From: a virus | Virus genome (UHGV): UHGV-0038492 | Length of the DNA stretch: 64,000 nt | Reading direction: 5' to 3' (one strand) | Shown here: positions 6,583 to 61,340 of the stretch, in pieces | Layout of the letters: each line of letters opens with the position of its first letter | Position numbering within the stretch: position 1 is the stretch's first letter | Translations under genes and position numbers: made by a program | The notes under the pieces: model-generated | What the model was told of the DNA's origin: nothing | What the model saw: the letters and a program-made list of their open reading frames with translations, nothing else | The model's database searches: none

Positions 6583-8421
6583 ATGGCTAAAGAGTTTAAC
6601 GATATTCCTAACAACGTAAATGCTGGCGCTGCTGGTGTAGACCCGGCTCCGTCTTTTGGTGGTGTGGGTGCTGGTGCAAGCAGCGTGGATAACACCCACG
6701 CAGCAAATGCTTTCGGTGGTATGACTAAGAATATCTCCACCTTCGATAAAGCGTTCGGCTATATGTCCTACGTTTCTGCCGCTTCACATTTCACCGCACT
6801 GATTGCGAAGATGGTTGAACGTAACCCGTACCTGAGCAAATTCCGCTGCGGTGTTATCGACGGTGTGAATCCAGAAATGGGTTCTGCGGCATACGTTGCT
6901 GCGCCAGCAGATGAAAACGGCAGCCACTGGATGTACGGTATCCTGTTCTTCGAACACGGTCAGTCTGTACGCTTCCGTGAAATCAACGGTAAAGAAACTT
7001 ATTACACCCTGGCTTCTCTGTTTGGTCAGGATGGTGTAATGGATTCTATCACCAAACAAATCTGCGAACAGCAGAACCTGCCGTCTGTGCAATTCATGGT
7101 AATGAACTGCATTCCAGACCTGGGTAAAACGCTGACTGAAGAGTGGGCTATCCAGCTGATGGGTCAGCTGACTCTGGGTATCTTTGGCCGTATTCCGGGC
7201 TACCTGGGTCAGATGAAACTGACTCGTGGCGATCGCTTCGTTGCACAGGTAACTGCGGTAGACGAAGGTTCTCTGACTGACGTTAACGGTTCTGCACAAC
7301 GTGCTGACCTGATGGTTCAAGTTGAACACACTCAGACCGGTAGCTTCGATACCAACCCGACGCTGATGTCCTCTGAACGTGTTCAGGGTTATCCGAGCGT
7401 TGCGGGTGTGGGTTACATCAACCTGCGTTACACTGGTCGTCGTGCACCTGAAAATGGCGTACAGGATTACAAACAGCTGCAAGCAGAAGTTGTTGTTTCT
7501 CTGATGGACTCTCAGTCTTCCGGGGCTATGGTACCAATCGAACGTCAGCTGATTGAACTGGCTGCCTTCGCAGAAATCGCCGCTATCGGTGGCTGGCGTG
7601 AACGCTTCATGCACTCTCTCAACAAAACCGATCGTCGTTTCTCCCGCGTTATGGAATACGTAGAGTGGGGTGACAAACGTCCTGATCTGAGCAAAATCGA
7701 TGGCAACCGCGAAGCTATCGAAGAGTGCCTGAACATGTTCGCCTACCCAGAAGCTGCGCTGGTTGTGAACCATCGTGCTGGTAACGGCATCGGTGGTCTC
7801 TCCACGATGTTCAGTGAAGTTTCCCAGGGTAACACTGGTACACTGTCTAACATCCTGACCATCCTGGACAACATGGCTCCGAAAGGTGCTACGGTGTTCA
7901 CGCAGCGTTTCGCTGAAATGCTGAAAGTTAATACCATCACCTGCAACCACGTTGTTATCGCTGGCGTGCCGACTGTTTCCGGTCAGTATTTCAGCAACAG
8001 CCAGAAACGTAGCTTCCAGGATCAGGACCTGGTGTCTGTTCTGAGCAAAGTTGGTGATAACCAACACGATGCCTACACTTACCTGTACGCGCAATCTTAC
8101 TCACACCGTCAGTTCAACGCGACTGAACAGCGTCTGTACCTGCTGAAGCTGGCCGCTTCCCTGTTCGGCAGCAAACAGCCGGTCGTAACTGGCGAGTCCA
8201 CCGATTTGGCAATCAACCCGAAATTCGCCAAAGCGCTGCTGGACTACGTGCGTGATAACTGCATCTTCCAAGTGAATGGTGTTACCGCAGTCAATAGCCT
8301 GGCTAATACGTTGTTCTTCAACAACGGCGGTGAAAACTTCACTCTGTCTGGTAACGGCCCGAATTCCTTCGGCAGTGACTACAACATGTCATTCGCTTCC
8401 GGTAACTACAGCCCTATCTGA
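6583..8421 (+). CDS. abundant protein with Gly/Ala-rich N-terminal tail; candidate nuclear-shell (chimallin-like) or major virion protein
   Basis: 612 aa; strong RBS 'aaaggataaataaaATG'; strong host-like codon bias (CTG/CGT/GGT) giving a 436-aa stop-free antisense frame. Confidence 0.7.
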   Translation: MAKEFNDIPNNVNAGAAGVDPAPSFGGVGAGASSVDNTHAANAFGGMTKNISTFDKAFGYMSYVSAASHFTALIAKMVERNPYLSKFRCGVIDGVNPEMGSAAYVAAPADENGSHWMYGILFFEHGQSVRFREINGKETYYTLASLFGQDGVMDSITKQICEQQNLPSVQFMVMNCIPDLGKTLTEEWAIQLMGQLTLGIFGRIPGYLGQMKLTRGDRFVAQVTAVDEGSLTDVNGSAQRADLMVQVEHTQTGSFDTNPTLMSSERVQGYPSVAGVGYINLRYTGRRAPENGVQDYKQLQAEVVVSLMDSQSSGAMVPIERQLIELAAFAEIAAIGGWRERFMHSLNKTDRRFSRVMEYVEWGDKRPDLSKIDGNREAIEECLNMFAYPEAALVVNHRAGNGIGGLSTMFSEVSQGNTGTLSNILTILDNMAPKGATVFTQRFAEMLKVNTITCNHVVIAGVPTVSGQYFSNSQKRSFQDQDLVSVLSKVGDNQHDAYTYLYAQSYSHRQFNATEQRLYLLKLAASLFGSKQPVVTGESTDLAINPKFAKALLDYVRDNCIFQVNGVTAVNSLANTLFFNNGGENFTLSGNGPNSFGSDYNMSFASGNYSPI

Positions 8422-34114: not shown

Positions 34115-34185
34115 GTTTTCACTCTCAAATCTAGCGGCTGCTATACTGATTTGTGGGTAATGTAATTTCTCAAAAGGAAACACAA

Positions 34186-35520
34186 ATGGGATACTGGCAA
34201 AATCACATTGCATCAGTTGCGGATGCAAAGGTTGTAGCCGCAGAATCAATTAAATTCCAAGATAAAAAGAAACTCGCAGAACTGGCAGACATTATTGCTA
34301 AATTTCGTGCAGCCGGAGACTTCAGTCCGGCCGGTTACGAGAGTTCTGGCGTTTCTGATTGGGTATTTAAAACCAACGGCATTAGCATTAACTTTAAGAA
34401 CGGTAGCGAACTCGGATTATTCGACGTTGCCTTCGCAGGTGTAGAACCGCCTAAACTGGACGCGAACAGTCCGGTCATTGCGTCAATGGCGCGTGCACTG
34501 TACGCAGGCAATAAAGACCTGGATATGTACAGTAAGTTTATTAAAGAAAACGAACTGAACAGCACCATTGACGATTCCAGTGCGAAAATCAGCGGTGATT
34601 TAAGCAAAGTCGCTTCCCCGCTCTATCTGACTCCGGTGTTGTTAGAGAAGCTGGAGCTGACCGATTTGGAGGTTGCTGCGGTAATCCTTCACGAAGTCGG
34701 GCACGTTTATTATTACTTCCGTACGCTGATGCGAACCGTGGTAACGGATTTACTGGCAGACGCTGCGGCTAACCGTATCATGGAAAGCGAAGACCCAGCT
34801 GTTCGTTTACGTGTGGTTAAAGACGTTGAACGAATGCTGAACACGAAAGTGAATCAGCCTGAGACCATCTGCACTGAGTACAAGAAAGAAAACGTCTACA
34901 TGCATCTGGTAACAGATTTGCTGTTAGACCGTCCGTTCATTACCGGTAGTCAAGGCTTTGCAAACCGTACCTGGGAACGTGCTGCTGACGACTTCGCTGC
35001 CCGTTTTGGTGCGGCCCCGTACTTAGCTTCTGCGCTGTACAAAATGGAAACCAGCCCGTTCTATCTACTGCGTAACTCGTCGTATATGAACATGGGCGTC
35101 CACCTGACGATTGAGTTGTTCCGTGTGACTGCGCTGATTGCTCAAGCCGCCATTCCGATTCTTCCGGTTATCTCTGTTACGTTCGGGATGATTCTGAACG
35201 ACCCAGATAACACCATCTACGATCCGCCGCAGGAACGTTTTGAAGCGATGCGTCGTACGCTGGTAGAAGAACTGAATACCATCAAAGACAAAAACACGAA
35301 AGCGGCTAACGAGCAACGTAAACGTATTCTGGATGGTATCGCGGTAATTGACCGAATTCTCCTTACGGTTAAAGACAAAGATAACCTGTATCAGTTTATC
35401 TGGAAGACGCTGACACCGAAAGGGCGTCGTGACCGTGCTGCGGTGGATTATCAGCGCGCTATCGGGAAGTATATGTCGAATGACCTCCGTATCGCATCTG
35501 CCATGTTTAACGTCGATTAA
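34186..35520 (+). CDS. hypothetical protein
   Basis: start moved to ATG with AAAGGAAA upstream (track start 34153 is GTG). Confidence 0.55.
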   Translation: MGYWQNHIASVADAKVVAAESIKFQDKKKLAELADIIAKFRAAGDFSPAGYESSGVSDWVFKTNGISINFKNGSELGLFDVAFAGVEPPKLDANSPVIASMARALYAGNKDLDMYSKFIKENELNSTIDDSSAKISGDLSKVASPLYLTPVLLEKLELTDLEVAAVILHEVGHVYYYFRTLMRTVVTDLLADAAANRIMESEDPAVRLRVVKDVERMLNTKVNQPETICTEYKKENVYMHLVTDLLLDRPFITGSQGFANRTWERAADDFAARFGAAPYLASALYKMETSPFYLLRNSSYMNMGVHLTIELFRVTALIAQAAIPILPVISVTFGMILNDPDNTIYDPPQERFEAMRRTLVEELNTIKDKNTKAANEQRKRILDGIAVIDRILLTVKDKDNLYQFIWKTLTPKGRRDRAAVDYQRAIGKYMSNDLRIASAMFNVD

Positions 35521-35534: not shown

Positions 35535-35978
35535 ATGACGCATAAAGTTTCTCTGAATTCGTTAGTTCTGGATTTTAAACGTGCTAACGAAGGTAAAGGT
35601 GTTCAGGCGCAGCGTGCCCTGACTGGCCTGGTTGCATTCTCGCTGGCGTATAATGCCGATATGCCAGACAACGGACCGTATGGTTCTAACGAAGTTTCAC
35701 AAATCAAACTTCGTCCACTGATGAAAAACGTGGTATCCGACGTTAACGAGCTTTACTGCGTTGACTTAGGCACTATTGAAGACCTGACCGTTGCGTTGTT
35801 CTGTAACCGTTACGACAGCGCCTGGGGTGGACGTCGTGCAATTGAAAACTTCTCCGTACGTGAGATTTTCAACGAAGCCTTAGGTGATGATGTTTGGAAC
35901 ACCGTCAACCTGTGGCTGGAACGTTTTGTCGACGCAGTGAAATTCTACATGGATGAAACGCGAGGCAAATTATCATGA
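35535..35978 (+). CDS. hypothetical protein
   Basis: 147-aa ORF with RBS 'aaaggtaaaaccATG'. Confidence 0.55.
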   Translation: MTHKVSLNSLVLDFKRANEGKGVQAQRALTGLVAFSLAYNADMPDNGPYGSNEVSQIKLRPLMKNVVSDVNELYCVDLGTIEDLTVALFCNRYDSAWGGRRAIENFSVREIFNEALGDDVWNTVNLWLERFVDAVKFYMDETRGKLS

Positions 35979-37648
35979 GCATGGAAATGACAGCAAACAT
36001 TGCACAACCGCAATGGAAACTCGACGAACTTCCAACCATTATCGAACAGCGAATGGAAGAACGTATCGATTCTGTCAGCCAGCTCAACCTCTACATGCAG
36101 CGTAACGAAGCCGATTTGATTTACGGTTCACGTATTATCGCGCAGATTGAAGCGATTCTTCGTGAAGTTCGTAAAGCGGGTCTAAATCGTGACGTTGCCG
36201 TAGCGACGGAATCTTTGCGTCCAGGTACCATTCCAAAAGCAGTGCAAAGCATCCTGACGTCGAATTACAGCCGTACCCATCAGAAAGAAACCGTCATCGC
36301 GTTAGAGTCTTACGCAAACTTCGGTAAGATCAGTCTTATCGTGATGGTAATGATGGGGATTATGAAAATCCTGAACTGGATTATCAGTAACGCTGTACCG
36401 TTTGCAGGGGCTGCTGACGTGGATGGGGACGAGTATCGTGACAAGCTCTTAGAGAAGATCGATGCGGTTCCTTTCTTTGAACGTCTGAAAATTACCGCGC
36501 TGAAAGAAGCGTATATGGACGCATCGAAGGGACTGAAAGACGGCGAACTGAATAACCTGGAATTGGCTATTCTGATGGCGGATGAAGTCCTGACGAACAT
36601 GAACGCGGAAGACCTGCTGAACAAGCTCAGTGCGGCACTGGGTCGTTCTCCGTTCGTAGGGATGTTTAAAGACTACACGAAACGCCGTCAGAACGAACAG
36701 CAGGTTATCCACGATATCCTCGATACGTTGCTGCGTACCAATATCGGTTGTGCAGTATTCAGTCAGCAGGTTTGTGACGAAGTGTACAAAGGTTTACCGG
36801 CGGACGTTCGTAAAGCAGGTGTCAACATTCCTAACGAAGCGTTCTACCGCCAGATGGGAAGAAACCTGGAGAACTTCTCCGCAGGGTTAAAACGTTTAGA
36901 ACAGTCGTTAAAAGACCTCAAGACCTATTACTTCTCGGGTGACCGTAGGCTGGGTACGGATCAAGAAAACCGTATTAGCGCAACGGGCATCGTTCAAGCA
37001 CTGGCGTTGCTTAACGGTGAAATTGAAATAGGGTTAACTGATTTTGCATCGTGCCGTGGCGCACCCTTACCGACGATAATGGTGAAATCCGATCGTGACT
37101 TAATCGGCTATTCATCTCGTGAGTTCGGTAATGGTTTCATTATCGCTTCTGCGGGCGTTAACTCGTATTTCGGTTCTGCGGCTAACATGGAAATTATGCG
37201 CCAGGAGCTGAGCTTTACCAGCGGTGATTCTCGTGAACTGTTAGCGTGTCTGATTACGTTAGCTCGTAGCGGTATTACCAAAGGGCCAGCCGATACGTCT
37301 CTTGACCGTTTCAAAGTGGTAGAGAAACAGATCGAGAAAGTGGTTAGCCAGTTGAAAGACATGTCTCGCCAATCTCGCTCTGGTATGAACAGCAAAGCTT
37401 GGCAGATGATGGAACAAGCGTTCCGTGACGAAGCACAACGTTCAGAACTGTACGAATTGGACATTGGTCGTGAACTGACGACGATGACCGTGATGGACCC
37501 AGACCGAAACGTGTGGGATTCTGTTGCGTTTACAACGGAACTGATTAAGTCCTGGACAACTGCCGCCGGTGCGCTGGCGACGATTCTGAAACGGGCTAAG
37601 AACAACCCGCTGGTAAAAGGTGGGAAGTTTAATAAACTCGTCGACTAA
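35975..37648 (+). CDS. hypothetical protein with hydrophobic segment
   Basis: 557-aa ORF, ATGA overlap with upstream stop. Confidence 0.55.
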   Translation: MSMEMTANIAQPQWKLDELPTIIEQRMEERIDSVSQLNLYMQRNEADLIYGSRIIAQIEAILREVRKAGLNRDVAVATESLRPGTIPKAVQSILTSNYSRTHQKETVIALESYANFGKISLIVMVMMGIMKILNWIISNAVPFAGAADVDGDEYRDKLLEKIDAVPFFERLKITALKEAYMDASKGLKDGELNNLELAILMADEVLTNMNAEDLLNKLSAALGRSPFVGMFKDYTKRRQNEQQVIHDILDTLLRTNIGCAVFSQQVCDEVYKGLPADVRKAGVNIPNEAFYRQMGRNLENFSAGLKRLEQSLKDLKTYYFSGDRRLGTDQENRISATGIVQALALLNGEIEIGLTDFASCRGAPLPTIMVKSDRDLIGYSSREFGNGFIIASAGVNSYFGSAANMEIMRQELSFTSGDSRELLACLITLARSGITKGPADTSLDRFKVVEKQIEKVVSQLKDMSRQSRSGMNSKAWQMMEQAFRDEAQRSELYELDIGRELTTMTVMDPDRNVWDSVAFTTELIKSWTTAAGALATILKRAKNNPLVKGGKFNKLVD

Positions 37649-37700: not shown

Positions 37701-40652
37701 GTCTGCGGTGGTGTCGTGACGGTTGTAAACGATAACAACGTCGTCTTTCAGACCGATGTCACCACTGGCTTCAATATCCAGTTTCTTACCAATCGTTGCG
37801 CGTGCAGCTTCGGATACCACAGTAAACAGACGCATGTCTTTGTCTGGACCCATCGCATCCAACTCAACCCCGATGATCGACGTGTCAAGCGTTTCGCTGA
37901 GCTCATTACCAATCTCTGTTGCCGAGATAGTAAGATGTGAACCCAAGTAGTCGTTGATAACTTGAGACGTTTTCTTACGAATCTGCGTTAACAGATCGCT
38001 GTTGCTACGGTTAGCCGCTGTGAGGTAATAACGAACGGTAAACTGGTTTTCAGCCGGTTTCGGCGTCACCACCCCGTCTTCGGTACGTGCATCGATATAA
38101 CCCATCGTGGTGATAGGAACGAAATACCCTTCCGTACGCTCTAACAACATCGGTTTTAACGTCGGTAGAACCACGGTCACGTAGTTAACGATATTCTCAA
38201 TAACTGCGTTCAGATAGGATTTCGCAGACGCTGTGGTAGCGAATTTATAACGTGCGTCGAAGACCGCCATTTCACTACGGAACTTAATAGAACGAGATTT
38301 CGCAATCTTAGGATTACCGTACTCGTCTTTTACTAAGTCCCCTTCGTGGTGCAGGATAATCTGCTGGCCGGTTTCGTCAAGCTTAGGATCGCCTTTACGG
38401 TGTTCGTAAGTGATTTGTAGCGGTGGTGTACGGCCTGCGTCATACGTGTAAACCGGAACCCCATTCTCATCACGTTTCACCACGTCAATTTCCCACGTCG
38501 CTAACACGTCTTTGTCGTAATACTCGTAGTTGATGCTGTCAGTAACAGCACGCGCTTTACGCCAATAGTACGTCATCGCTTTACCCAGTTCGATTTTGAA
38601 TATCTCGTGGGTAATACCGATAGCGTCACGAGAAGGCGCTGTGATTAACGTATCCATCTCTACACGTTCGTAGTTCCCAGGGTAATAACCTGTGCAACCG
38701 TAGAACAGGTTAAAATCTGTCAGCAGTGGAACAGGTGTTTCCGTTGGGTTACTTCCGTTAATGCGGGTGTTGGTCAGTACCAGTTCGTCGTTACGGTCAA
38801 CGTCCAGGTTAGTTTCCAGCAAGAACTCCCAAACACGTTCACTGCCCTGCTTACCGACTAACGTACCGTTAATGTACGCCAAGGTGTTATCGGAATTACG
38901 AGGACGGAAAGACAGCTGTGCAAAGACTTGGTCATCAGTCAGTGCCTGGTAAGGTGCTTCTGACTTCGTAATCGTACGCAACACATAACCTGCTTCCGTT
39001 TTCTCGATAGTGTAGTCAGCAGTAACGACGCTGAGCTCCGTCGAGACGTTGGTCGCAATAAAGCGTTTGGAGTTTAATAGCGGTTTATCCAACTGGTAAA
39101 TACGCACGTCAATCGCTTTGTTGTTAATGTCAACAACGTAATGGAACGGTGTAAACAAATAACGGTTCGTGTTTGCTGCGTTAATCAAGTCTTCCTTACG
39201 CATGGTCTTCGCCAATACCGTCATCTCGGCATCTACAGTCAGACTGGTATCCGTAAAGCGATAGAGTGTGTCAGGAAGAATGGTCAGGCGATTACCGTTG
39301 ACTTTCACTGTCGGAAGATTAACCAGCTCGTTCCAGGAGAAATAGAACGGCGCAGTAATCGTACCAATCGGTGAGCTGACGTTAGCAATCGTCGATTCCA
39401 ACATCGGTGCTGTCATGAAGTACGTACGACTGGTCACATAGTCGTTAGGTTTAGACAGCGTAAGACCGTAATCGGAAACCGTAGCTTCAAGCTGCTTTTC
39501 CGTCACAGGTAATTTACGTGCACCCACAGCGTTATTAACAACGCGAGTACGTAAGTCACTGAACGAGAGCTGACTGCGACCACCCGACAGCATCTTCCCA
39601 GCTTTTGCTGCAAGCTGTTTAATAGAGAATGCTTTAATCGGGTTGATATAGTTCGCGTCATACTCTTCGTTTAAGTCACGTAGACTGAAGCTATACTCAT
39701 CAGACGGGTATGCAGAGATGTCTAACTCCAACGGCCCTAAGGTCGTATAGACGTCCATCCTGATAGTCCCACTGACGAGATTCTTCGCCATGTAAATAGA
39801 TGGAATCGTACAACGGATGTTGCCGTTACCCACCTGAATCAATGCTGTTGGCGTGTTCGGGTCGTAAACATCCCGACTGTGGGTGTGCTGTATCTCTACC
39901 CACTTGTTGCTGCCCGTTGCCTTCATCCAAACACGAACGTAGAAGAACTTGTTAGTGTAAGCACGGGTCATGACGAAAGTGTTGTTACCTTCGACAGTGT
40001 TACTTTCTTCTTTCACCGCATACTGCATAACCGGGATATGAATAGCCAGCAGCTGTGACGACGTTGTGTTAGTGGACGTTAGTTCCCATTCCAGGGCGTT
40101 CGTGGAAACTGGTGAAATCGGCGATTGTGTTTCAGTAATCCACAGTACCTGGAATGCCGGGTTCTCGTTCGTTCCGTATGGAAGTACACGGATTTCGATT
40201 GGGTACTGAATAGCAAACGTGTAACCAGAAACCGTAAAAACAGTGTCACGTGGGATAACGACTTTACGAACCCCCGCGATTTGCAACGGATACGCTTTCG
40301 AGATTAAGCTGTCAACGTCAATTAACAGTAACAGTTCTGTAGTAGCAGGCTGCGCAAAGACGTCAACGTAATCCACGTCTGACATGTGTCGGAACAGGTC
40401 ATCGTAGGTCTGTGCCATTGACGGGAACGTTTTAGGAATAGATTCCTGGAGCCCCATCAACGTCGCGTGTCCCATCATCGTTCCCATTTCTGCCAAATAA
40501 ACGACAGGGTCGGTAGGGTCACGGAGATAAATTTGACCATCGGCATCTTCAACATCTTGAAGCTGGTTTAGCAGCATTGTCTGCATCGCCGCAGGGTTGT
40601 GTGCGAACAGCAGAAGTTTCTTTGCCAAAGTATCGTAAGTTGTTGAACTCAT
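37698..40652 (-). CDS. large hypothetical protein (984 aa), plausibly structural
   Basis: long minus-strand ORF; start overlaps upstream stop (TGATG). Confidence 0.6.
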   Translation of the reverse strand: MSSTTYDTLAKKLLLFAHNPAAMQTMLLNQLQDVEDADGQIYLRDPTDPVVYLAEMGTMMGHATLMGLQESIPKTFPSMAQTYDDLFRHMSDVDYVDVFAQPATTELLLLIDVDSLISKAYPLQIAGVRKVVIPRDTVFTVSGYTFAIQYPIEIRVLPYGTNENPAFQVLWITETQSPISPVSTNALEWELTSTNTTSSQLLAIHIPVMQYAVKEESNTVEGNNTFVMTRAYTNKFFYVRVWMKATGSNKWVEIQHTHSRDVYDPNTPTALIQVGNGNIRCTIPSIYMAKNLVSGTIRMDVYTTLGPLELDISAYPSDEYSFSLRDLNEEYDANYINPIKAFSIKQLAAKAGKMLSGGRSQLSFSDLRTRVVNNAVGARKLPVTEKQLEATVSDYGLTLSKPNDYVTSRTYFMTAPMLESTIANVSSPIGTITAPFYFSWNELVNLPTVKVNGNRLTILPDTLYRFTDTSLTVDAEMTVLAKTMRKEDLINAANTNRYLFTPFHYVVDINNKAIDVRIYQLDKPLLNSKRFIATNVSTELSVVTADYTIEKTEAGYVLRTITKSEAPYQALTDDQVFAQLSFRPRNSDNTLAYINGTLVGKQGSERVWEFLLETNLDVDRNDELVLTNTRINGSNPTETPVPLLTDFNLFYGCTGYYPGNYERVEMDTLITAPSRDAIGITHEIFKIELGKAMTYYWRKARAVTDSINYEYYDKDVLATWEIDVVKRDENGVPVYTYDAGRTPPLQITYEHRKGDPKLDETGQQIILHHEGDLVKDEYGNPKIAKSRSIKFRSEMAVFDARYKFATTASAKSYLNAVIENIVNYVTVVLPTLKPMLLERTEGYFVPITTMGYIDARTEDGVVTPKPAENQFTVRYYLTAANRSNSDLLTQIRKKTSQVINDYLGSHLTISATEIGNELSETLDTSIIGVELDAMGPDKDMRLFTVVSEAARATIGKKLDIEASGDIGLKDDVVIVYNRHDTTAD

Positions 40653-41956
40653 CAGTTAGTACCTGCCTCTGTAACAAGACCATTGACGCTGTCAAGTAAT
40701 CCTGCTTTCTTGAGAATATATTGATAGTCTGCTTGGTAGACATACCAGGTAAGCTTGCGCCGTACGGAATCGATATGTGGATAGCCGTAATAGTTAAATA
40801 AAGGCAATAACTGTGGCGCGATAGGAACAAGTTGGCTGCTGGCCATCGGGATAAAATTCCCCGAAGCGACTGAGCCGGGTTGTGGGAGCATATCTGGGTT
40901 AAACATCCCAACGGTTTTATTGAACATCTCCATGTAAAGCGGATCGTTAAACCGTGCCCCGATTGCTTGCCAGTTGATGTTAATCGTTACATCGTCATTT
41001 AACTGTGGTTTTGAGTTATCGACGTTCGCCATTTGACCCGCGTTATCGTTCATCGGCCAGGCTACACAGATTGTCCAGAAACGGGTGATGTTCCCTAACG
41101 CATCGTAACGTAGACCGTAGATACGTGACTGGTAATCAATGCGTCGTTGGATGGAGTTGCGCATCTTCGGACGGAACTTACCCATCTTAACGCCCGCCAT
41201 ATACTCCAACCACACGCCCATCATTCGCATTAATGGGTCACCGTAAGGGTTGTTTAAGGACATTGACACAGAGAACGCGTTGTTGATTTCGTGCGTAGAA
41301 TCAACCATACCCCATTGTTCGCGCATCAACCCTTCACTGGCCATCCAGTTGTCGACGGACTGATCGGGTGTTCCGCTTAAACTGATCAGCTGTGTACTGA
41401 GTATTGGTATGAACGCTTGTAGATTATCGAATCTTACCTGCGGCATAAACGGAGTACCTAAGCGGTTTCTTCGTATCCCCGTTTTGCTCTCAACAGGTGA
41501 GTCCGAAAACCCTAATTCGAAATCAGGGTCGAGAGCAGCAAGTATCGAATAATCTAAAGAGTCCTTCGGCTGCAATGCCATGTTTGACATTTTACGCGAC
41601 TTGGCAATGTTGTCGTAGCACAGGTTGAAATCGGGCCGGGTAATAAATGTTAGACCGCCGTATTCTCGGTTGATTGGCGTGGGGTTAGACGCCATCATAT
41701 GGTTGAACCCCATGTAGGGGTTGGTCAAACGCTGCGCAGCAAGACCCAAACCTACAGTAAGGCGGATACGATCGTTCCATGCCGTAAGTTCGGTGTTTGC
41801 ATCGTAAGGTGTTGCCGGATTGTTGTTGCTGAGTCGGTTATTAAAATACCCGGCAACAGAAGGCACCGCGTCCGCGTTATTCGGATTGTGGAGAGAATCG
41901 TCGTAATCAGTATTCGGGTCATACCCCGGATCGTTCTTATCTGTCTCGTCACTCAT
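40652..41956 (-). CDS. hypothetical protein (434 aa)
   Basis: minus-strand ORF with GGAG 8 nt upstream of ATG. Confidence 0.6.
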   Translation of the reverse strand: MSDETDKNDPGYDPNTDYDDSLHNPNNADAVPSVAGYFNNRLSNNNPATPYDANTELTAWNDRIRLTVGLGLAAQRLTNPYMGFNHMMASNPTPINREYGGLTFITRPDFNLCYDNIAKSRKMSNMALQPKDSLDYSILAALDPDFELGFSDSPVESKTGIRRNRLGTPFMPQVRFDNLQAFIPILSTQLISLSGTPDQSVDNWMASEGLMREQWGMVDSTHEINNAFSVSMSLNNPYGDPLMRMMGVWLEYMAGVKMGKFRPKMRNSIQRRIDYQSRIYGLRYDALGNITRFWTICVAWPMNDNAGQMANVDNSKPQLNDDVTININWQAIGARFNDPLYMEMFNKTVGMFNPDMLPQPGSVASGNFIPMASSQLVPIAPQLLPLFNYYGYPHIDSVRRKLTWYVYQADYQYILKKAGLLDSVNGLVTEAGTN

Positions 41957-41982: not shown

Positions 41983-43089
41983 ATGTTAGAAAAAACGTTT
42001 GAGACAAGCGTTGTCTCTTTCCTCTCCAGACTTCCCATGCTATTTCGTTCGCGTGCGGAGTCGACGGAGGAATTTAACTCCGTGCTCTATAATGAGCACA
42101 TTACCTTAGTCGAACAAAGCCTGCTGGGTTTAGATTACCTTCCGGGAATTCTGGAGAAAATCCAAGTTTTGCTGGCAGGAAACCAACTTACTGCAATCTC
42201 ACTGTTAACGGGTGTGCCTGACGTTGATATTATCGGTACACTGGATCAAGTAAGTACCCGTCGTAGCGCACTCGATAACGCAGTGCGTAGCGGCTCACGC
42301 TTAGCAGCACTGGCAGTCGGCGAATCTTCCCGCCTAGGATTACCATCATACGATAAAATCGGCATTGCTGTGGGTGAATGCGCCCGCCGTGTCGCACAGG
42401 AATCCAAAGGTTCCGTTACCGGTGGTAAAGCAGACCCGATTAAACAACTGTTCGATCAGGAAGGGCTGTCTAACGGGAAAATGTTCTCTGTAACGTTTGA
42501 ACGTGACGGTAATAAAGTCGAACTTCCAATGCGTTTACGTTTGGACGTTAAGTCTCTTCCGACTGAGCAGATTGAAACCCTGATTGCATTCAGCGACCAG
42601 ACGAAAACGTTCTGGGAACGTTGGCTGCGTGCGCGTGTAGGTGCACTGAGCTATGTTAAAGACATTGCGTTCTGTAACGACCTGGTAGAAGAATACCGTA
42701 AGAACCGTTATCGCGATAAGTCAGGTTACTATCGTAAGATGATGGAGAAGAAAAACGGCAACTGGCTGTCTGGCTTGCTGACGCTGGCACCGTCTATTAA
42801 TAACGCTTCTTCTGTCATGGTGGTTTCTCAAGACACTATCGACGGTCTGACTGCCCAGCTAGGCGGTGAGTTTGACGATTTCAATATTCGTCAGCGTGTC
42901 TTCAAAGACACCTTAACCGTCTATTACGTGGTAGTGGACACCGCGTGGAACCGCGTTACTATTTATACTCGTGGTCAGAACGGTTCTCAGGAACTTGATA
43001 AATCCGATTTCAGCAAAGCGAAGTCCGGTAGCGCTGATGTGAACAAAATCATTGAAGCGTATCGCTCTGGCGCACAGCCAGTTCTTTAA
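41983..43089 (+). CDS. hypothetical protein
   Basis: 368-aa ORF with RBS; divergent from 40652..41956. Confidence 0.55.
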   Translation: MLEKTFETSVVSFLSRLPMLFRSRAESTEEFNSVLYNEHITLVEQSLLGLDYLPGILEKIQVLLAGNQLTAISLLTGVPDVDIIGTLDQVSTRRSALDNAVRSGSRLAALAVGESSRLGLPSYDKIGIAVGECARRVAQESKGSVTGGKADPIKQLFDQEGLSNGKMFSVTFERDGNKVELPMRLRLDVKSLPTEQIETLIAFSDQTKTFWERWLRARVGALSYVKDIAFCNDLVEEYRKNRYRDKSGYYRKMMEKKNGNWLSGLLTLAPSINNASSVMVVSQDTIDGLTAQLGGEFDDFNIRQRVFKDTLTVYYVVVDTAWNRVTIYTRGQNGSQELDKSDFSKAKSGSADVNKIIEAYRSGAQPVL

Positions 43090-43099
43090 GGGGTAAGGC

Positions 43100-44035
43100 A
43101 TGGCATTCCCGAATATGCTCGCTATGTTGTTGCCGAGCTTTGAAGCAACAAACTTGAAAAACCAGCTTTCGTCCAACTGCGATGCAATTGGCGAACAACT
43201 TTTACCACGTTTCCAGTCTTTACAAGAACTGGTAGCGTCGAAAGAAGGCAAACCGTTTAAATCGAAAACGGTACAAGAAATATCCGATGAAGTGGTTAAC
43301 TACCTGCGGACTTCCGGTCTGGAAGCCAAAGGTCTCCGCAATCCATCGATGTTAGAGTACATCGTTTCCTCGATGGAAAACGTGTTGCAGTTGCGTTCTT
43401 TCTTAGACCAATGTATTGCGCGTGACATTGGTAAATCGTTAGTCACGTCTTCAATGACGTTTAATAAATTAACGGTGCTCAGACTGCTTGACCTGATTGA
43501 TTTCTTCACAGGTTACAGTGCTACGTTACTTAACTACGTTACCGCAGAAGAGATTGCCGCTGTTGAAGGCTCGAATATTGAAGTGAAGGGCATCGGTCCG
43601 AATGACCTTCAATACCTCAATACTCGTTCGGTCTCTTACTGCATCGCCATCCGTGTTTTGGCAACGCCGGTAAATAAACTGAAAGCGGATTATGCCGAAA
43701 TCCCAGAAGCGATTTTCAACGACGAAACTTACGGTGAGTTGGTTCAGCAGTTCGGTTCGGGCTCGACTGACCCGCTGGGAATGAGCAGTGTACCGTTCCC
43801 GATCTCACTGATACTTCGCGTTCGTTTGAATATTGCTGAAAGGCAGATGGATAAATACGACGAGTGTGTAGAAGCAGCGAAAGCTGCGGAGTTGCGTATC
43901 CTGCTTTACAAAAAGCAAGTAGCGGAAGGTAAGGGAGATGCGCATATCGAAAAACTCATCGAGCTAAGTGAAAAGCATCTGTTGGAACTCAAGCATAAGC
44001 GTGAGCGTCTTGAGAAGAAATACGGTTTAGTGTAA
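43100..44035 (+). CDS. hypothetical protein
   Basis: 311-aa ORF with RBS. Confidence 0.55.
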   Translation: MAFPNMLAMLLPSFEATNLKNQLSSNCDAIGEQLLPRFQSLQELVASKEGKPFKSKTVQEISDEVVNYLRTSGLEAKGLRNPSMLEYIVSSMENVLQLRSFLDQCIARDIGKSLVTSSMTFNKLTVLRLLDLIDFFTGYSATLLNYVTAEEIAAVEGSNIEVKGIGPNDLQYLNTRSVSYCIAIRVLATPVNKLKADYAEIPEAIFNDETYGELVQQFGSGSTDPLGMSSVPFPISLILRVRLNIAERQMDKYDECVEAAKAAELRILLYKKQVAEGKGDAHIEKLIELSEKHLLELKHKRERLEKKYGLV

Positions 44036-44052: not shown

Positions 44053-44613
44053 ATGTTTGAGCACGATAGTCCCGATTTTAATGTGGCCGTAGAGCGCATT
44101 AAAACCTATATGTCGATTTTATCAAAAAACCCAATCGACACACACGATGACGAGCTTATTCACAAAACGCTGGAAGCGTGTGCGGTTATATTGCCGTATT
44201 TTCGTCTGTTCGCTGCTGACTCTGTGCAGCAGGTATTATATGACGAATATCCGCAGGTCGGATTTACCTTTAATACGTTTTATAACGAAAGCGTAGCCTT
44301 CCTGCTTGATGGTAAACGACGCACCGTGACGTTAGGACAGTGGTCCGTATTGCTGTCGTCGTACATGAATGATGTTCGCAATACGAAGAACGTTGAACAG
44401 ACGGGCTCATTGGGTGCACGTCTTCTTGCTGCTGCGTTTGGTCGCCGGGGTACTGTACGTAATATGGGTTCCGCTCACCAGTCTGTTGAGTGTAGCAAAC
44501 GTCTTTTATCTTATGCAGACCATGAACTGCTGGCACGCTGGATGACACGCCCGAACGGGTTGTCCGACATGATCTCGTCGTTAGCAGTGTTTTTGAAAAT
44601 CGCACGTCCCTAA
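44053..44613 (+). CDS. hypothetical protein
   Basis: 186-aa ORF; RBS 'taggagagcctcATG'. Confidence 0.55.
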   Translation: MFEHDSPDFNVAVERIKTYMSILSKNPIDTHDDELIHKTLEACAVILPYFRLFAADSVQQVLYDEYPQVGFTFNTFYNESVAFLLDGKRRTVTLGQWSVLLSSYMNDVRNTKNVEQTGSLGARLLAAAFGRRGTVRNMGSAHQSVECSKRLLSYADHELLARWMTRPNGLSDMISSLAVFLKIARP

Positions 44614-44672
44614 GGGGGCCCCTCATTCTAGGGGCGTGTAATTGGGTTATATAACCAAAGGAAATAAACGAA

Positions 44673-45944
44673 ATGGCAAATTTCGCAAAAACTCGCGCCG
44701 CTCGTGAATCAATGGAAGCGGCCGATGAAGTAATCGACGGTATCAGCAACGTTGAACCGGCAGAAGAGAACCTGGACGTCCAGCTTGCAGAAGTAGCCTC
44801 TATGGATGGTGAACTGGATCAGCTGGAAACTGACGGTGAAACTTTGGCCGCCGATACTGAGCGTACTGAAGACGCTATCGATCAGGCGGAAGAAGCCGTT
44901 GCTAACGGTGAAGAAATGCCGGAAGAAGCGGTTGCCCTGCACGAAGTGGCCCAGGAATCCATCGCACGTCGTTGGTGCCTGGAACGTACCAAACTGGCTC
45001 GTGAATCCTATCGCCGTGGCCGTGGCATGACTGCTGCTGCGCAGGAAGGCTGGAAAGAAACCCTGAAAGATCTTTACGATCGTTTCATTCAGTTCTGTAA
45101 AGAAGTGATTGCGAAGATCAAAGACCTGAAACTGAAATATTTCAACGTCGGTAAGACCGCACAGAAACGTGCGAAGAAATATCAGGAAATGCTGCGTAAG
45201 CTGGGCAAACAGAAGAAAGATGAAATCTCTGGTGGCTTTATCACCAAGCTGTCGATCGAAGGTAAATTCGATGCTGCTGGCTCTATCGCTATTGCGAAAG
45301 AAGTTACCGCTGGCAAAGCTAAAGGTTCCATCAGTGTTCTGGAAAAACAAGCTGGTGAAGCTGTGACCGCTGTGAGCAAAGGTGACGACGACGCATTCAA
45401 AGCAATGCGTGGCGATCAGCCGGTAGAACTGTTTGGTAAAGCGGCTTCTAAACTGCACACTCTGCCGAACTTTGAAAAAGGTGATGCGTCCAAACTGCTG
45501 GCTCTGCCGGGCAACGCATACGTTCAGGCTGGTACTAAAGAACTGGCTGGCGGTCACAAGTTCACTGCAATTGCATTCATGAGCACCGGTGACGCGTCTG
45601 AAGATAAAGACGTGAAAACTCCGTCCGTTTCTGAAATGGCTGGCGCTGCTTCTGCTCTGGAAGCAATCGGTAAAGGCTTCGAAGCTGTACTGAAAGATTT
45701 CCGTGCTTATGACGCTGAAATCGTGAAGCTGCAACAGGCTGCTGAGAAAGCTGCTACCGCACTGAATACCGAAAAAGACCAGAGCAAGTGGGATGGCCTG
45801 CGTAATGCACGTCAAGCTGCTGATTGGTCTGTGAAGAACTACCAGACCCTGAACCGCGCCGTTAGCTATGTTGCTAACACCGTTATTAGCGGTCTGAACG
45901 GCTACCTGGGTGCTGGTATCGGTGCTTACGAAAAATCTAAATAA
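44673..45944 (+). CDS. abundant protein, paralog A (candidate major head/inner-body-type virion protein)
   Basis: 423 aa; strong RBS; heavy codon optimisation (368-aa antisense open frame); paralogous to 46027..47292. Confidence 0.7.
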   Translation: MANFAKTRAARESMEAADEVIDGISNVEPAEENLDVQLAEVASMDGELDQLETDGETLAADTERTEDAIDQAEEAVANGEEMPEEAVALHEVAQESIARRWCLERTKLARESYRRGRGMTAAAQEGWKETLKDLYDRFIQFCKEVIAKIKDLKLKYFNVGKTAQKRAKKYQEMLRKLGKQKKDEISGGFITKLSIEGKFDAAGSIAIAKEVTAGKAKGSISVLEKQAGEAVTAVSKGDDDAFKAMRGDQPVELFGKAASKLHTLPNFEKGDASKLLALPGNAYVQAGTKELAGGHKFTAIAFMSTGDASEDKDVKTPSVSEMAGAASALEAIGKGFEAVLKDFRAYDAEIVKLQQAAEKAATALNTEKDQSKWDGLRNARQAADWSVKNYQTLNRAVSYVANTVISGLNGYLGAGIGAYEKSK

Positions 45945-46026
45945 TCATTTAGATTCGTAGTTCCGTACAGTTCTTGAAATAAATCATCAGGGGAACAACG
46001 CGTTCCCCTTAGAGGAAAAGCTTAAA

Positions 46027-47292
46027 ATGGCGAATTTCTACAAAAACAAAATTGCTCGTGAGTCTATGGAGTCTACTTCTACTGTAGTTCCAGACGGCAT
46101 CGAACTGCCAGCAGAATCTGTAGAAGGTACTCTGGCCGATATCGAGCATGACACCAAACCGATCGAAGCAATGGACGCAGACGCAGAGCTGCTGGCCGAA
46201 GACGGCGACGAAACCGATGCTCAGCTGGAAGTCCTGGACGAAGCTCAGGCTGCTGCTGACGGTGAAGGCGCTGAAGACGGCGAAGAGCCGATGGACGCTG
46301 AAGAAGACATGCCGGACGACGCTGCTAAAGCGCTGGACGTTGCTCAGGAATCCATCCGTTCTCGCTGGAACTTCGAACACCGTTCTTCTGTTGCTCACGA
46401 ATCCTACGGTTCTCGTAACCGCCGTCAGGTTGCTCGTGAATCCCTGTGGGAAGACATTAAAGCCTTCATGAAACGTATCCTTGATTGGCTGAAAGAACAG
46501 GGTCGTAAGATCAAAGATCGTTGGCTGAAATTCCACAACCAGGGTAAATCTATCCAGGCGCGTGCGAAGAAAAACGACGCAATTATCCGTAAGCTGGGCA
46601 AACAGAAGAAAGATGAAATCTCTGGTGGTTTCATTAAATCTCTGTCCATCGACGGTAAGTTCGTTGGTGACGACTCCACGAAACTGAAAGGTATTCTGAC
46701 CCAGGTTTCCAGCTTCTATAGCTCTAAAATGCCTTCTATGGCTGCTAAAGCCTCTGCCATGGTTGAAGATGTTACTAAAGGTAACGGCGCTAAGATTGAA
46801 AACCTGAAAGCCGAGTTCGGTGAACTGGCTAAACAAGATAATCTTAAGAACTTCAAGCTCGGTAACATGGCTGTTAAGTCTGAGTACGATAACGAAGGCG
46901 GTTTCTCCACTACCTTCGTTGAGTCTGAAAACACCGTTGAAACCAGCGTGAAAACTCCGTCTGTTGGCGATCTGGCTAAACTCAATGCCTTCTTCAACGA
47001 AGTGGGTAAACAGATTGAGAAGAACGTTCAGGATTATCGTAAAGTTGAAAGCGCACGTAAGTCTTTCGAAGACAGCATCGATAAGCTGCTGAAAGAAATC
47101 GACAAAGTTAAGATCGATGAAAAACCGGAACTGACCGAAAACGTGCGTCGCGCTCGTCGTTACGTTACCAGTGTTAACCAGGCTCTGTCTCTGGGTGAGA
47201 AAGTTATTGCTTCTACTCAGAAACATCTGGCTAACGGTCTGAACGGTTATATCTCAGCAGGTATTGCCGCTTACGAAAAGACTAAAGCTTAA
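46027..47292 (+). CDS. abundant protein, paralog B
   Basis: 421 aa; shared blocks 'MANF..K..ARESME', 'IRKLGKQKKDEISGGFI', 'VKTPSV', 'LNGY..AGI.AYEK.K'; 405-aa antisense open frame. Confidence 0.7.
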   Translation: MANFYKNKIARESMESTSTVVPDGIELPAESVEGTLADIEHDTKPIEAMDADAELLAEDGDETDAQLEVLDEAQAAADGEGAEDGEEPMDAEEDMPDDAAKALDVAQESIRSRWNFEHRSSVAHESYGSRNRRQVARESLWEDIKAFMKRILDWLKEQGRKIKDRWLKFHNQGKSIQARAKKNDAIIRKLGKQKKDEISGGFIKSLSIDGKFVGDDSTKLKGILTQVSSFYSSKMPSMAAKASAMVEDVTKGNGAKIENLKAEFGELAKQDNLKNFKLGNMAVKSEYDNEGGFSTTFVESENTVETSVKTPSVGDLAKLNAFFNEVGKQIEKNVQDYRKVESARKSFEDSIDKLLKEIDKVKIDEKPELTENVRRARRYVTSVNQALSLGEKVIASTQKHLANGLNGYISAGIAAYEKTKA

Positions 47293-47306
47293 CTGAACAG
47301 TTAGGC

Positions 47307-47355
47307 AAGAGAACCACCCTGTAATGGGGTGGTTCTCCCTTTTCTTTTTTTTTCG
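47307..47355 (+). terminator. rho-independent terminator
   Basis: 'gagaaccaccctgtaatggggtggttctc' followed by long T-run. Confidence 0.75.
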
Positions 47356-47359
47356 ATTA

Positions 47360-47398
47360 AAAATAATCTCAGATAGATATTACCTTAGTGAGATTACG
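47360..47398 (+). promoter_or_regulatory. phage promoter-like motif, copy 5
   Basis: 'aaaataatctcagatagatattaccttagtgagattacg'. Confidence 0.5.
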
Positions 47399-47620: not shown

Positions 47621-47624
47621 TTGC

Positions 47625-59054: not shown

Positions 59055-61340
59055 ATGAAAGATACCCGAATCTCTAATTTAGAGAAACTCGTAGAAGCCG
59101 GTACTAGTCTGGCCCAAAACGTCATCGGCAACAACACCGCCAGCGAAATGTGGAATACGATTGTTGCAGGCGAGTCCGTACGCAGCAACGCAAAAGTGTT
59201 TGGCGTTCTGCGTGACGAAGCATCACAGCACTATGCCAACGCTTTTGGTGGCAAGAAAATGTCTCATGCTGCGACTGTCGCCTCCGCAATGATTCTGGGT
59301 GCAGCTAACCACGGTAAAGACCTGCAAGAACGTGTTGCCCAGGAATACGCTAAGCCGGAATTCCACACCAAGTATAACCTGGATATTGGTATCCCTGGTG
59401 CGCAAGGTGGTGACTGGGGTCGTGAGCGCATGGTTGTTGCTCAGGAATATTACAGCAACAAAGACTACGACAAAAACCTGGGCCTGACCTGGACCCTGAA
59501 CGTACGTGCTCTGGAAACTCAGTCCAAGTTTGCTGAAACGCTGTTCCCGACCATTACCGTTGACACCAACGATGTTGGTATTACCGTACGTACTAAAGTG
59601 ACTACCGTTTCTCGCGGTATCATGAACGCGCTGCTGAGCAAAGACGTGGTTGAAGACCATCGTCGTCCGCTGCACAACGCACTGACTGACCACACCGTTC
59701 TCCAGGACGAAGCGATCAACATCGTTCCTTACGTAATGGAAACCGGTGAAAACCAGGAATACTTCGTAAGCGAAGAACTGGTTCCGAACGAAAAAGTTCG
59801 CCTGGGTCGTGTACCTCCGTACCCGACTAACTACCTGAGCTTTGCAAACGACACGCTGAACCTGTTCCAGCTGTCTGCGCATCCGGGTATCGTTCAGGAA
59901 GGTTACGATGAAACTGATGAAATCGCACCGGGTTGTGCTCTGGGCAGCCTGCTGATTTCTGTACGTAAACCTGCCGAAGAAGCGAAAGCAGGTAAATTCA
60001 TCAAACTACACGTTCGTGACATGCAGTTCGCAACCTTCCAGCGTCCTGCTGAAGGTGACGGCCGTGAACTGGTTCTGCAATTCCGTCGTACCGCGTTCTC
60101 TCTGAATGCGAAAACCACTGACTGGAAAGGCGACGCTATTCCGGCTCTGCAAGCACTGGGTCAGAACTCCTACACCCTGCGCTACGTTATCACCATCACC
60201 ATGTCCCTGTTCACCAGCGGCCAGTTCGGTGGTAAAGTAGACATTTCCGGCCACAAACTGGAAATCGAAGGTCTGTACGATGCAACTGGTAACAAAGTTG
60301 ATACCAAGTCTGGTACCGGTAAAGTTATCCTGGACGGCCTGAAACTCGAACTGATGGGCTGGCGCTTCGATGGTACTCGTACCAACGAAAACCGTCGTAC
60401 CCAGGGTCTGCTGCTTGACCCAATTTGGGAACAGGAAAACTACAAACTGCAATACGGTTCTCCGATTCTGACCAAGTCTCCGGTTGGTGTTGAATACGAC
60501 GACACTGAACGTCTGGACGACCTGATCTCTGCGGTGAACATCCGTAACGAACAGCTGGCTATTACTCAGACGCTGTCTTACACTGAAGCAGTACGTAACG
60601 CAGCCGCTGCGATGATCACTCCGTGGGACAAACCGGCTATCCGTGGTCTGGGCCGTCACTGGGTTGCTCCGTGGTTCAAAGAGTCTGACTACAAAGTCGA
60701 TGAAGTTGTTCAGTCTCTGGATACCAAAGAAGCGCTGATCAACGCTCGTCAGGGTCTGTTGCAGCGTATCGGTAGCCAGGTAACTCAGGCTATCCAGGAT
60801 TCTCGTTTCATTCCTGCACTGCGCCTGCTGACCGCTGATCCGGACATTCTGCCGAAAGTTATCATCGCAACTGACGAACCGACTGCATCTATGCTGCTGC
60901 TGGTTCAGGGCGACCAACGTCTGCTGGGCGACCGTTATGAATACGAAGTCGTTACCACCAACGATGACCGCTGGCGTATCTACAACGCAGCTGACGATTC
61001 CTGGACTCGTCGTCTGCAATGGTTCCTGAAAGTTCCGACTGCGGACGATGGTTCCTACTGCGTACTGAACTGGGGTAACCACTTCTGGTCTCCGATCATG
61101 GTTACCAACATCAACATCCAGCGTAACGGTTCTACTTCTAAAGAACTGGCTGTACAGCCGCGTAACGCGCATATCTGCCACTGCCCGATCACTGGTCTGA
61201 TTTGGGTTAAAGGCATCACCAAACTGGTTGAAGAAAAACTGGCTTACAACGTTTCTGTAGAACAGAACGGCCAGAAACAAACCGACGGTGGTGTAGCAGG
61301 TAATGTTGCTGGCGACGGTAAAGACAAAGCTGGTAAATAA
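59055..61340 (+). CDS. candidate major capsid protein (abundant structural protein)
   Basis: 761 aa; strong RBS; extreme codon optimisation (424-aa and 219-aa antisense open frames); size matches phiKZ-type major capsid proteins. Confidence 0.65.
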   Translation: MKDTRISNLEKLVEAGTSLAQNVIGNNTASEMWNTIVAGESVRSNAKVFGVLRDEASQHYANAFGGKKMSHAATVASAMILGAANHGKDLQERVAQEYAKPEFHTKYNLDIGIPGAQGGDWGRERMVVAQEYYSNKDYDKNLGLTWTLNVRALETQSKFAETLFPTITVDTNDVGITVRTKVTTVSRGIMNALLSKDVVEDHRRPLHNALTDHTVLQDEAINIVPYVMETGENQEYFVSEELVPNEKVRLGRVPPYPTNYLSFANDTLNLFQLSAHPGIVQEGYDETDEIAPGCALGSLLISVRKPAEEAKAGKFIKLHVRDMQFATFQRPAEGDGRELVLQFRRTAFSLNAKTTDWKGDAIPALQALGQNSYTLRYVITITMSLFTSGQFGGKVDISGHKLEIEGLYDATGNKVDTKSGTGKVILDGLKLELMGWRFDGTRTNENRRTQGLLLDPIWEQENYKLQYGSPILTKSPVGVEYDDTERLDDLISAVNIRNEQLAITQTLSYTEAVRNAAAAMITPWDKPAIRGLGRHWVAPWFKESDYKVDEVVQSLDTKEALINARQGLLQRIGSQVTQAIQDSRFIPALRLLTADPDILPKVIIATDEPTASMLLLVQGDQRLLGDRYEYEVVTTNDDRWRIYNAADDSWTRRLQWFLKVPTADDGSYCVLNWGNHFWSPIMVTNINIQRNGSTSKELAVQPRNAHICHCPITGLIWVKGITKLVEEKLAYNVSVEQNGQKQTDGGVAGNVAGDGKDKAGK

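Follow-up and report, generated by a model that had tools for sequence, protein, structure and literature searches.

Gp53 and gp54 of the jumbo phage SPN3US ('paralog family A') and its capsid protein are the head components of highest abundance; for gp53 and gp54, a conservative estimate is >600 copies each per head (PMC5694885). In the 'mottled' capsids of protease-deficient SPN3US, a T=1 inner shell under the T=27 lattice consists mainly of gp53 and gp54; this shell is remodelled on maturation, with both proteins being retained (PMC7552025). Both proteins are cleaved after A-x-E by the S80 prohead protease gp245 (PMC10052503, Table 2 and Fig. 3; PMC7411985), and they have been called ejection (E) proteins (PMC7411985), a name justified by homology to the inner-body proteins of phiKZ (PMC5694885). 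For phiKZ gp93, gp95 and gp97 and for Goslar gp58, injection has been shown by microscopy (bioRxiv 10.1101/2024.03.24.586471; 10.64898/2026.04.21.720040). Here, we analysed a stretch of 64,000 nucleotides (nt) of the virus genome UHGV-0038492 (hereafter, the window), in which two tandem genes, designated A and B, very probably encode the orthologs of gp53 and gp54, i.e. the PF12699 internal head or ejection protein pair of an SPN3US-like jumbo phage. An earlier note on this DNA had described two open reading frames (ORFs), and both were found with exactly the coordinates and lengths that it gave:

44673..45944, + strand: gene A, 423 amino acids (aa), 45.7 kDa, PF12699 internal head (ejection) protein, probable ortholog of SPN3US gp53 and Asesino gp70
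46027..47292, + strand: gene B, 421 aa, 46.7 kDa, PF12699 internal head (ejection) protein, probable ortholog of SPN3US gp54 and Asesino gp71

The locus matches SPN3US gp53/gp54 in the tandem arrangement, order, strand and flanking genes, in protein length (within 2 aa), in the MANFxKxxxARES motif, in the division into an acidic propeptide and a basic mature part, and in the position of an intergenic hairpin and of a terminator after B, while about 30-40% of the residues differ, as does the stem sequence of the hairpin, with compensated changes. The closest named phages carry Asesino gp70/gp71 and phiEaH2 gp237/gp238 (Erskinevirus, annotated 'internal head protein'), with the same synteny and about 76% DNA identity over 72-74% of the locus; these homologs differ in being described at the annotation level only and in belonging to phages of a different host genus.

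The same PF12699 family and the same predicted fold class also include the more distant phiKZ gp93, gp95, gp97 and gp162 and Goslar gp53-gp58. High copy number in the head, clustered paralogs near head-structure genes and injection with the DNA are features that these proteins probably have in common with A and B, as is N-terminal cleavage by an S80 protease (SLE-13 in phiKZ gp93, predicted at ARE-12 in A and B). In contrast, identities in structural alignments are 12-18%, there are eight paralogs in phiKZ and six in Goslar vs two here, the protease of phiKZ has the motif S/A-x-E, and its heads contain a visible cylindrical inner body, whereas SPN3US-type heads show a bolus or inner shell. Phage T4 IPI, IPII, IPIII and Alt are analogous in function only, i.e. 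they carry an N-terminal targeting sequence, are cut after glutamate by the prohead protease, are retained with the DNA and are ejected (PMC7411985). They have no relation to A and B in sequence or fold, their targeting peptides comprise 10-20 residues as opposed to multi-cut propeptides of 125-138 residues, and the protease is gp21 instead of an S80 enzyme. Like the predicted mature parts of A and B, the T4 internal proteins are basic.

Family membership, gene order and relatives of A and B

Over its full length, A aligned with B at 35% identity (BLASTP, E = 1e-54), which is far beyond chance, so that the pairwise alignment suggested earlier as a check for paralogy identified the two proteins as homologous. 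The described pattern of blocks conserved at both ends and in the middle, with divergent stretches in between, was reproduced by a sliding identity profile. Identity was 53% over the initial 30 columns, reached 43-50% near A residues 79-104 and rose to 57-73% at A residues 149-194, with mostly 7-27% and a few values of 33-40% in the stretches between; the motif GLNGYxxAGIxAYEKxK is common to both C-termini. No third paralog was detected when all six-frame ORFs of at least 50 aa in the window were searched with a hidden Markov model built from six orthologs.

Both proteins match Pfam PF12699 (phiKZ_IP, 'phiKZ-like phage internal head proteins') far above its curated gathering score of 27 bits, A with 245.3 bits (E 1.7e-72, profile positions 3-387 of 387) and B with 197.2 bits (E 6.7e-58, positions 2-387 of 387). 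They also match PHROG 2497 'internal head protein' (E 1.2e-147 for A and 5.4e-117 for B). The gene order is the same as in SPN3US gp50-gp54 and Asesino gp67-gp71, with a dihydrofolate reductase gene a few genes downstream:

41983..43089: counterpart of gp50
43100..44035: counterpart of gp51
44053..44613, + strand: counterpart of gp52, gene for a phiKZ gp91-like vertex protein directly upstream of A (Pfam PhiKZ_gp91, vertex-binding protein, E 1.1e-6)
59055..61340: gene for the phiKZ-type major capsid protein (Pfam PhiKZ_MCP, E 1.4e-207)

Upstream of these counterparts, 40652..41956 on the - strand encodes a homolog of SPN3US 'virion structural protein 3' that matches Pfam Phage_TTP_15 (putative tail tube protein, E 8.9e-175). 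Considering this match and that of 44053..44613 to PhiKZ_gp91, tail and head genes are interleaved around the locus.

A shares 69% identity with SPN3US gp53 and 74% with Asesino gp70; for B and SPN3US gp54 the value is 61%, whereas all cross-paralog identities lie at 30-36% (31-34% for A-B, A-gp54 and B-gp53 in the test for orthology). This one-to-one orthology, with 61-74% vs 30-36% identity, means that the duplication is older than the split between Seoulvirus, Erskinevirus, Machinavirus and the window phage. At the DNA level, identity to the Erwinia phages phiEaH2, Stratton, Asesino and ChrisDB is about 72-77% along a large part of the locus, and SPN3US and its relatives match the initial quarter of gene A at about 78-80%.

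The 5' ends of the paralogs resemble each other to a varying degree within phages. In SPN3US, the first 15 residues of the pair are identical, and identity over nt 1-30 is 93% in SPN3US, 93% in pEa_SNUABM_8 and 83% in ChrisDB, with a mean likeness of 0.78 within phages vs 0.71 across phages (13 of 720 pairings reach the observed mean). In SPN3US, pEa_SNUABM_8 and ChrisDB, the first ~10 codons may thus have undergone gene conversion over short tracts or be held alike by a shared constraint. For the window phage, gene conversion between the 5' ends was rejected, since the signal is absent (10 of 15 residues shared and 60% identity over the first 30 nt).

In the GenBank phage collection, nothing matched positions 44000-48000 of the window above about 77% nucleotide identity. 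The same region is 97% identical to two circular 'plasmid' records of about 222 kb, i.e. NZ_CP173450.1 (Escherichia coli 98232, human urine) and NZ_CP134650.1 (Enterobacter ludwigii, gull cloaca), and many isolate assemblies of Salmonella, Shigella and E. coli contain protein homologs of A and B with 87-99% identity, on contigs about 220-227 kb long. In these isolate records the homologs are annotated as 'hypothetical protein', with one fragment labelled 'YajC'. It appears that an SPN3US-like jumbo phage, either carried by enterobacterial isolates or co-sequenced with them, has been filed as a plasmid.

Cleavage sites, charge and predicted fold of the precursors

Virion mass spectrometry and N-terminal mapping, which the earlier note had named as the means to detect cleavage, have been published for the SPN3US orthologs with the outcome that it predicted (PMC5694885, PMC10052503). 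Mapping placed the cuts at ARE-12, AQE-95 and AQE-125 in gp53 and at AQE-124 and ARE-137 in gp54, the last of each being the maturation site (PMC10052503, Table 2), with (E)GWKETLKDLFER and (E)SLWDDIK as the respective mature N-termini (PMC10052503, Fig. 3); gp53 is also cut in vitro by recombinant gp245 (PMC10052503; PMC7411985). All five mapped sites are kept in register in A and B, with conserved P1' contexts. In A, these are ARE-12 followed by SME, AQE-95 followed by SIA and AQE-125 followed by GWKETLKDLYDR (GWKETLKDL); in B, they are AHE-125 followed by SYG and ARE-138 followed by SLWEDIK. B also has ARE-12 followed by SME, the counterpart of a gp54 site that was predicted but not mapped. 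Cleavage at these sites would divide the precursors as follows:

44673..45047, + strand: propeptide region of gene A, aa 1-125, 13.7 kDa, isoelectric point (pI) 4.2, net charge -20, with ARE-12, AQE-95, ARE-111 and AQE-125
45048..45941, + strand: predicted mature protein of gene A, aa 126-423, 32.0 kDa, pI 9.4, net charge +11, starting with GWKETLKDLYDR
46027..46440, + strand: propeptide region of gene B, aa 1-138, 15.1 kDa, pI 4.1, net charge -26, with ARE-12, AQE-108, AHE-125 and ARE-138
46441..47289, + strand: predicted mature protein of gene B, aa 139-421, 31.6 kDa, pI 9.5, net charge +13, starting with SLWEDIK

The site numbering is validated by the recomputed SPN3US masses (45.2/31.5/13.7 kDa for gp53 and 45.1/30.3/14.8 kDa for gp54), which lie within 0.1 kDa of the published table (PMC10052503).

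The sites of A and B are homologous in the alignment and define four positions, i.e. 12, 95/108, 111/125 and 125/138. Among the 64 sequences of a family alignment obtained by homolog search, A-x-E is kept at these positions in 64, 57, 63 and 58 members, respectively, and the P1' residue is almost always Ser or Gly. Across this family, the density of A-x-E per 100 aa is 4.55 in the propeptides vs 1.03 in the mature parts, and the median pI is 4.28 vs 9.32. The most basic 25-residue stretch has a net charge of +9 in A (aa 158-182) and +8 in B; it falls within the central block KRAKK...RKLGKQKKDEISGGF, which includes RKLGKQKK and belongs to the segment in which the two paralogs are most alike. 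This central basic block may be a surface in contact with DNA.

NZ_CP134650.1 encodes a protein annotated as 'S80 family phage morphogenetic serine protease'; it is 81% identical to the head maturation protease Asesino gp267, which matches Pfam Peptidase_S80 (E 1.4e-87). Homologs of other gp245 substrates in the window (59055..61340, 34153..35520 and 35975..37648) were examined as well. The major capsid protein has AQE-131 followed by YYSNK, matching SPN3US ATE-130 followed by YYTNK. The gp45 homolog has AAE followed by SIKFQD (SPN3US ASE-20 followed by SIGFQD), and the gp47 homolog has ATE-79 followed by SLRPGT (SPN3US AVE-75 followed by SSRPGT). For two further published sites, gp47 ALE-111 and gp50 ATE-127, there is no site at those numbers when the RefSeq start codons are used.

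The AlphaFold2 model of A, based on the 64-sequence alignment, reached a predicted local distance difference test (pLDDT) score of 84.8 and a predicted template-modelling (TM) score of 0.82, with predicted helices at residues 34-77, 84-100, 119-174, 319-366 and 370-417 and a small beta region. Searched against BFVD, the model had 105 matches at E <= 1e-3, with TM-scores of up to 0.84, to internal-head or virion proteins of jumbo phages, including 201phi2-1, PhiPA3, RSF1, RP12 and Ea35-70. An elongated helix-rich fold thus appears, by prediction, to be common to A and other internal head proteins of jumbo phages. Among solved structures, a profile of six orthologs found nothing meaningful in the PDB (best E 0.14, a coronavirus spike coiled coil), and a Foldseek search of the A model against the PDB gave no significant match. 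Neither protein has a hydrophobic segment, the maximum Kyte-Doolittle hydropathy over 19 residues being 0.99 in A and 0.44 in B.

Codon usage and non-coding signals of the A-B unit

The codons TTA, CTA and TCA make up only 1 of 54 Leu and Ser codons in A and 1 of 62 in B, vs 23% window-wide. In the avoidance of these codons, B ranks first and A second of 45 window genes, ahead of the major capsid protein (P ~2e-6 and ~1e-5). Such a bias is the signature expected of the most highly expressed genes and supports very high expression of A and B. A consequence of the near absence of TTA, CTA and TCA from the sense genes is the presence of long antisense ORFs over A (44709..45815, - strand, 368 aa) and B (46009..47226, - strand, 405 aa), which mirror them codon by codon. 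As real genes, these two ORFs were rejected, being codon-aligned artefacts with low-complexity translations. Further antisense mirrors, artefacts of the same codon avoidance, lie on the - strand at 60006..61280 (424 aa), over the gene for the major capsid protein, and at 6784..8094 (436 aa), over the gene at 6583..8421. The latter gene (612 aa) ranks fourth of 45 on codon bias, and its product is therefore probably another very abundant protein.

Non-coding elements around A and B were compared by aligning six phages, i.e. members of the three named genera and the window phage:

44618..44635, + strand: GC-rich hairpin, GCCCCT / 6-nt loop / AGGGGC, 5 nt after the stop of 44053..44613, stem invariant in the six phages, no T-run after it
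44636..44656, + strand: near-invariant upstream block GTGTAATTGGGTTATATAACC, containing the perfect palindrome GGTTATATAACC (44645-44656)
44658..44663, + strand: Shine-Dalgarno site of gene A, AAGGAA, 9 nt before the ATG, AGGAA invariant in the six phages
45989..46009, + strand: intergenic hairpin, stem 45989-45996/46002-46009, AGGGGAAC / AACGC (5-nt loop) / GTTCCCCT, 1 nt before the Shine-Dalgarno site of gene B, no T-run
46011..46016, + strand: Shine-Dalgarno site of gene B, AGAGGA, 10 nt before the ATG, invariant in the six phages
47309..47353, + strand: intrinsic terminator closing the A-B unit, 13-bp stem with seven G-C pairs and a 3-nt loop (stem-loop 47309-47337), long T-run

From the upstream stop region to the first codons of A (44608-44678), the six phages are 89% identical, vs about 72-77% at best for the genes. 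This region includes an invariant block, GTGTAATTGGGTTATAACC, and the palindrome takes the form GGTTATAACC in the relatives. The block GTGTAATTGGGTTATATAACC may accordingly be regarded as a candidate promoter or control site for the A-B transcription unit. A search of the window for the 8-mer ATATTACC gave one occurrence vs 1.6 expected, and GGTTATAWAACC-like sites were mildly enriched (16 vs 9.6 expected).

A second block, TCAGATAGATATTACCTTAGTGA at 47369-47391, follows the terminator of B, ahead of several small genes; all six phages have it in invariant or almost invariant form, and it is unique in the window. It may resemble the early-promoter consensus of phiKZ, TATATTAC. As a recurring promoter consensus, the upstream block and the block at 47369-47391 were rejected, each being unique in the window at <=3 mismatches. 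Between this second block and the next gene, a small ORF at 47445-47621 (58 aa, starting with MNRFQSKKEF) has its own AGGAG site and is an annotated coding sequence in the E. coli 'plasmid' record; a small terminator-like hairpin follows it at 47628-47643.

The hairpin that had been described between the two genes was found at 45989-46009. Its position just upstream of the Shine-Dalgarno site of gene B is kept in all six phages while the stem sequence varies: 48 of 48 cells are paired, and four of the eight pairs show compensatory double changes. The covariation score of 0.64 compares with 0.24 for shuffles (none of 500 reach it) and <=0.19 for slid registers. A role as a strong intrinsic terminator is unlikely, given that there is no T-run on the + strand and that gp53 and gp54 are near-equimolar in SPN3US (PMC5694885). 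The same two observations, i.e. the missing U-tract and the near-equal amounts of the SPN3US proteins, favour a function in mRNA stability, processing or translation insulation. After B, a stem with a T-run occupies the terminator position in all six phages. The non-coding elements matched no Rfam family, and a single sub-threshold match to a microRNA was attributed to chance.

Proposed role of the pair in the head and after infection

Our data suggest the following course of events, most steps of which are drawn from the better studied relatives. A and B would be expressed as one late transcription unit, with the near-invariant block upstream, the strong intrinsic terminator downstream and the hairpin without a U-tract in between, and would be translated at a very high level, in line with the strongest codon bias in the window. 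Hundreds to thousands of copies of the precursors, each of about 46 kDa, would then be incorporated into the procapsid and form an inner shell beneath the capsid lattice, as shown in SPN3US, with targeting and contacts probably provided by the conserved N-terminal MANFxKxxxARES segment and the acidic propeptide. By analogy with the SPN3US orthologs, whose processing has been shown and whose sites are kept here, an S80 protease would cut after A-x-E at 12, 95/108, 111/125 and 125/138 and thereby fragment the acidic propeptide of 13.7-15.1 kDa. The basic helical mature domains of about 32 kDa (pI ~9.4) would stay in the head with the packaged DNA; retention has been shown in SPN3US, and contact with the DNA seems likely from their charge. 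Finally, the mature domains may be expelled into the host with the genome, as shown for the distant relatives phiKZ gp93, gp95 and gp97 and Goslar gp58.

The earlier note had proposed high-copy head or inner-body proteins of a phiKZ-like phage that are trimmed by a prohead protease. This is supported by the matches to PF12699 and PHROG 2497, the synteny, the SPN3US orthologs, the kept cleavage sites, the S80 protease of the 97%-identical relative and the codon bias. Several points nevertheless weigh against it. Presence in the virion and cleavage of the window proteins are predicted by orthology, and these properties, like copy number and ejection, are transferred from orthologs of 61-69% identity or from distant family members. 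At the level of single sites, B has AHE where gp54 has AQE-124, and cleavage at the counterpart of A ARE-111 is not reported for gp53. The 64-kb window does not contain the prohead protease gene, which was seen in the 97%-identical relative only, and the upstream block at 44636-44656 does not recur in the window at <=3 mismatches in the manner of a promoter. The ribosome-binding sites, which had been claimed to be strong, proved ordinary, with anti-Shine-Dalgarno pairing energies of -5.6 (A) and -6.0 kcal/mol (B), rank 32 and 23 of 44 window genes; since they are average, transcription, mRNA stability and codon usage would have to account for a high output. Moreover, the term 'inner body protein' fits A and B loosely, because no phiKZ-style cylindrical inner body is seen in SPN3US-type phages.

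A different emphasis would place a scaffolding or core role first, with A and B mainly building the transient T=1 inner shell that templates or stabilizes the T=27 procapsid and the mature domains remaining as inert filler or DNA counter-ions without a function in the host cell. This agrees with gp53 and gp54 being the main parts of a T=1 inner shell that is lost on maturation (PMC7552025), with the gp243 amber mutant, in which gp53 and gp54 are not incorporated and the heads are unstable (PMC5694885), and with the acidic propeptide and basic mature part, a split that fits a scaffold whose acidic portion leaves to make room for DNA. Classical scaffolds, however, exit, whereas the 32-kDa mature domains are kept at >600 copies each (PMC5694885, PMC10052503), and the distant phiKZ gp93, gp95 and gp97 and Goslar gp58 are demonstrably injected (bioRxiv 10.1101/2024.03.24.586471; 10.64898/2026.04.21.720040). 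We regard a primarily scaffolding role as rather unlikely; scaffolding and ejection are not mutually exclusive and the difference is a matter of emphasis. It is also conceivable, but to our mind doubtful, that each precursor yields two products, with the fragment between sites 1 and 2 (residues 13-95 in A and 13-108 in B) staying behind as a fibre-like cement between hexamers and only the C-terminal helical domain being freed and ejected. The model for such a cement is phiKZ gp93, of which residues 14-84 were resolved by capsid cryo-electron microscopy, starting right after the SLE-13 cleavage site and running in an S-shape between hexameric capsomers (PMC11297242). The equivalent site, ARE-12 followed by S, is invariant in 64 of 64 family members, and gp53 propeptide peptides are still found in mature SPN3US heads at elevated counts (PMC10052503), although the propeptides of most processed SPN3US proteins are no longer detectable there (PMC10052503). 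The strongly acidic propeptide is predicted to form long helices (34-77 and 84-100) instead of arms with a helix-loop-helix, and phiKZ gp93 is a distant relative.

If the two products are combined with paralog-specific roles, it is tempting to speculate that the N-terminal fragment serves as capsid cement, as in phiKZ gp93, that the C-terminal bundle is an injected effector acting on the incoming DNA or the early infection compartment, and that the hairpin sets the A:B ratio; this extended version is, in our judgement, improbable. Still further from what we expect, and very improbable indeed, are membrane-active helical bundles resembling the alpha-pore-forming toxin ClyA that would, once ejected, remodel host membrane and so build or line an early phage infection vesicle. 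About half of the top 50 Foldseek hits in the PDB, none of them significant, are ClyA, SmhA/B, MakA/B/E, Hbl, NheA and AhlB, and injected phiKZ gp93 co-localizes with membrane-stained puncta (bioRxiv 10.1101/2024.03.24.586471). Yet all of these Foldseek hits have E >= 0.1 and TM-scores of <= 0.28, and the 19-residue hydropathy maxima (0.99 in A and 0.44 in B) indicate no hydrophobic segment. Without a significant fold match and a hydrophobic segment, the toxin-like reading is therefore unsupported. An internal head protein pair that is processed, retained with the DNA and probably ejected, as described for the SPN3US orthologs, is the reading that we prefer.

In this sense, A and B represent already known biology, i.e. 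an uncharacterized ortholog pair that is ordinary for its phage group, and the finding itself, the correct annotation of orthologs of well-characterized head proteins of giant phages, matters little alone. It does concern genes that the closest public 'plasmid' records of about 222 kb, from E. coli and Enterobacter, still label 'hypothetical protein'. Each jumbo-phage head contains hundreds to thousands of copies of PF12699 proteins, which are injected together with the genome, and the role of these proteins after injection has been called 'a key unsolved mystery' in a structural study of Goslar from 2026 (bioRxiv 10.64898/2026.04.21.720040). For work on this question in SPN3US, which is genetically tractable, the four invariant cleavage positions common to both paralog lineages, the charge switch, the basic central block, the covarying hairpin and the near-invariant, putative upstream control region may serve as handles.

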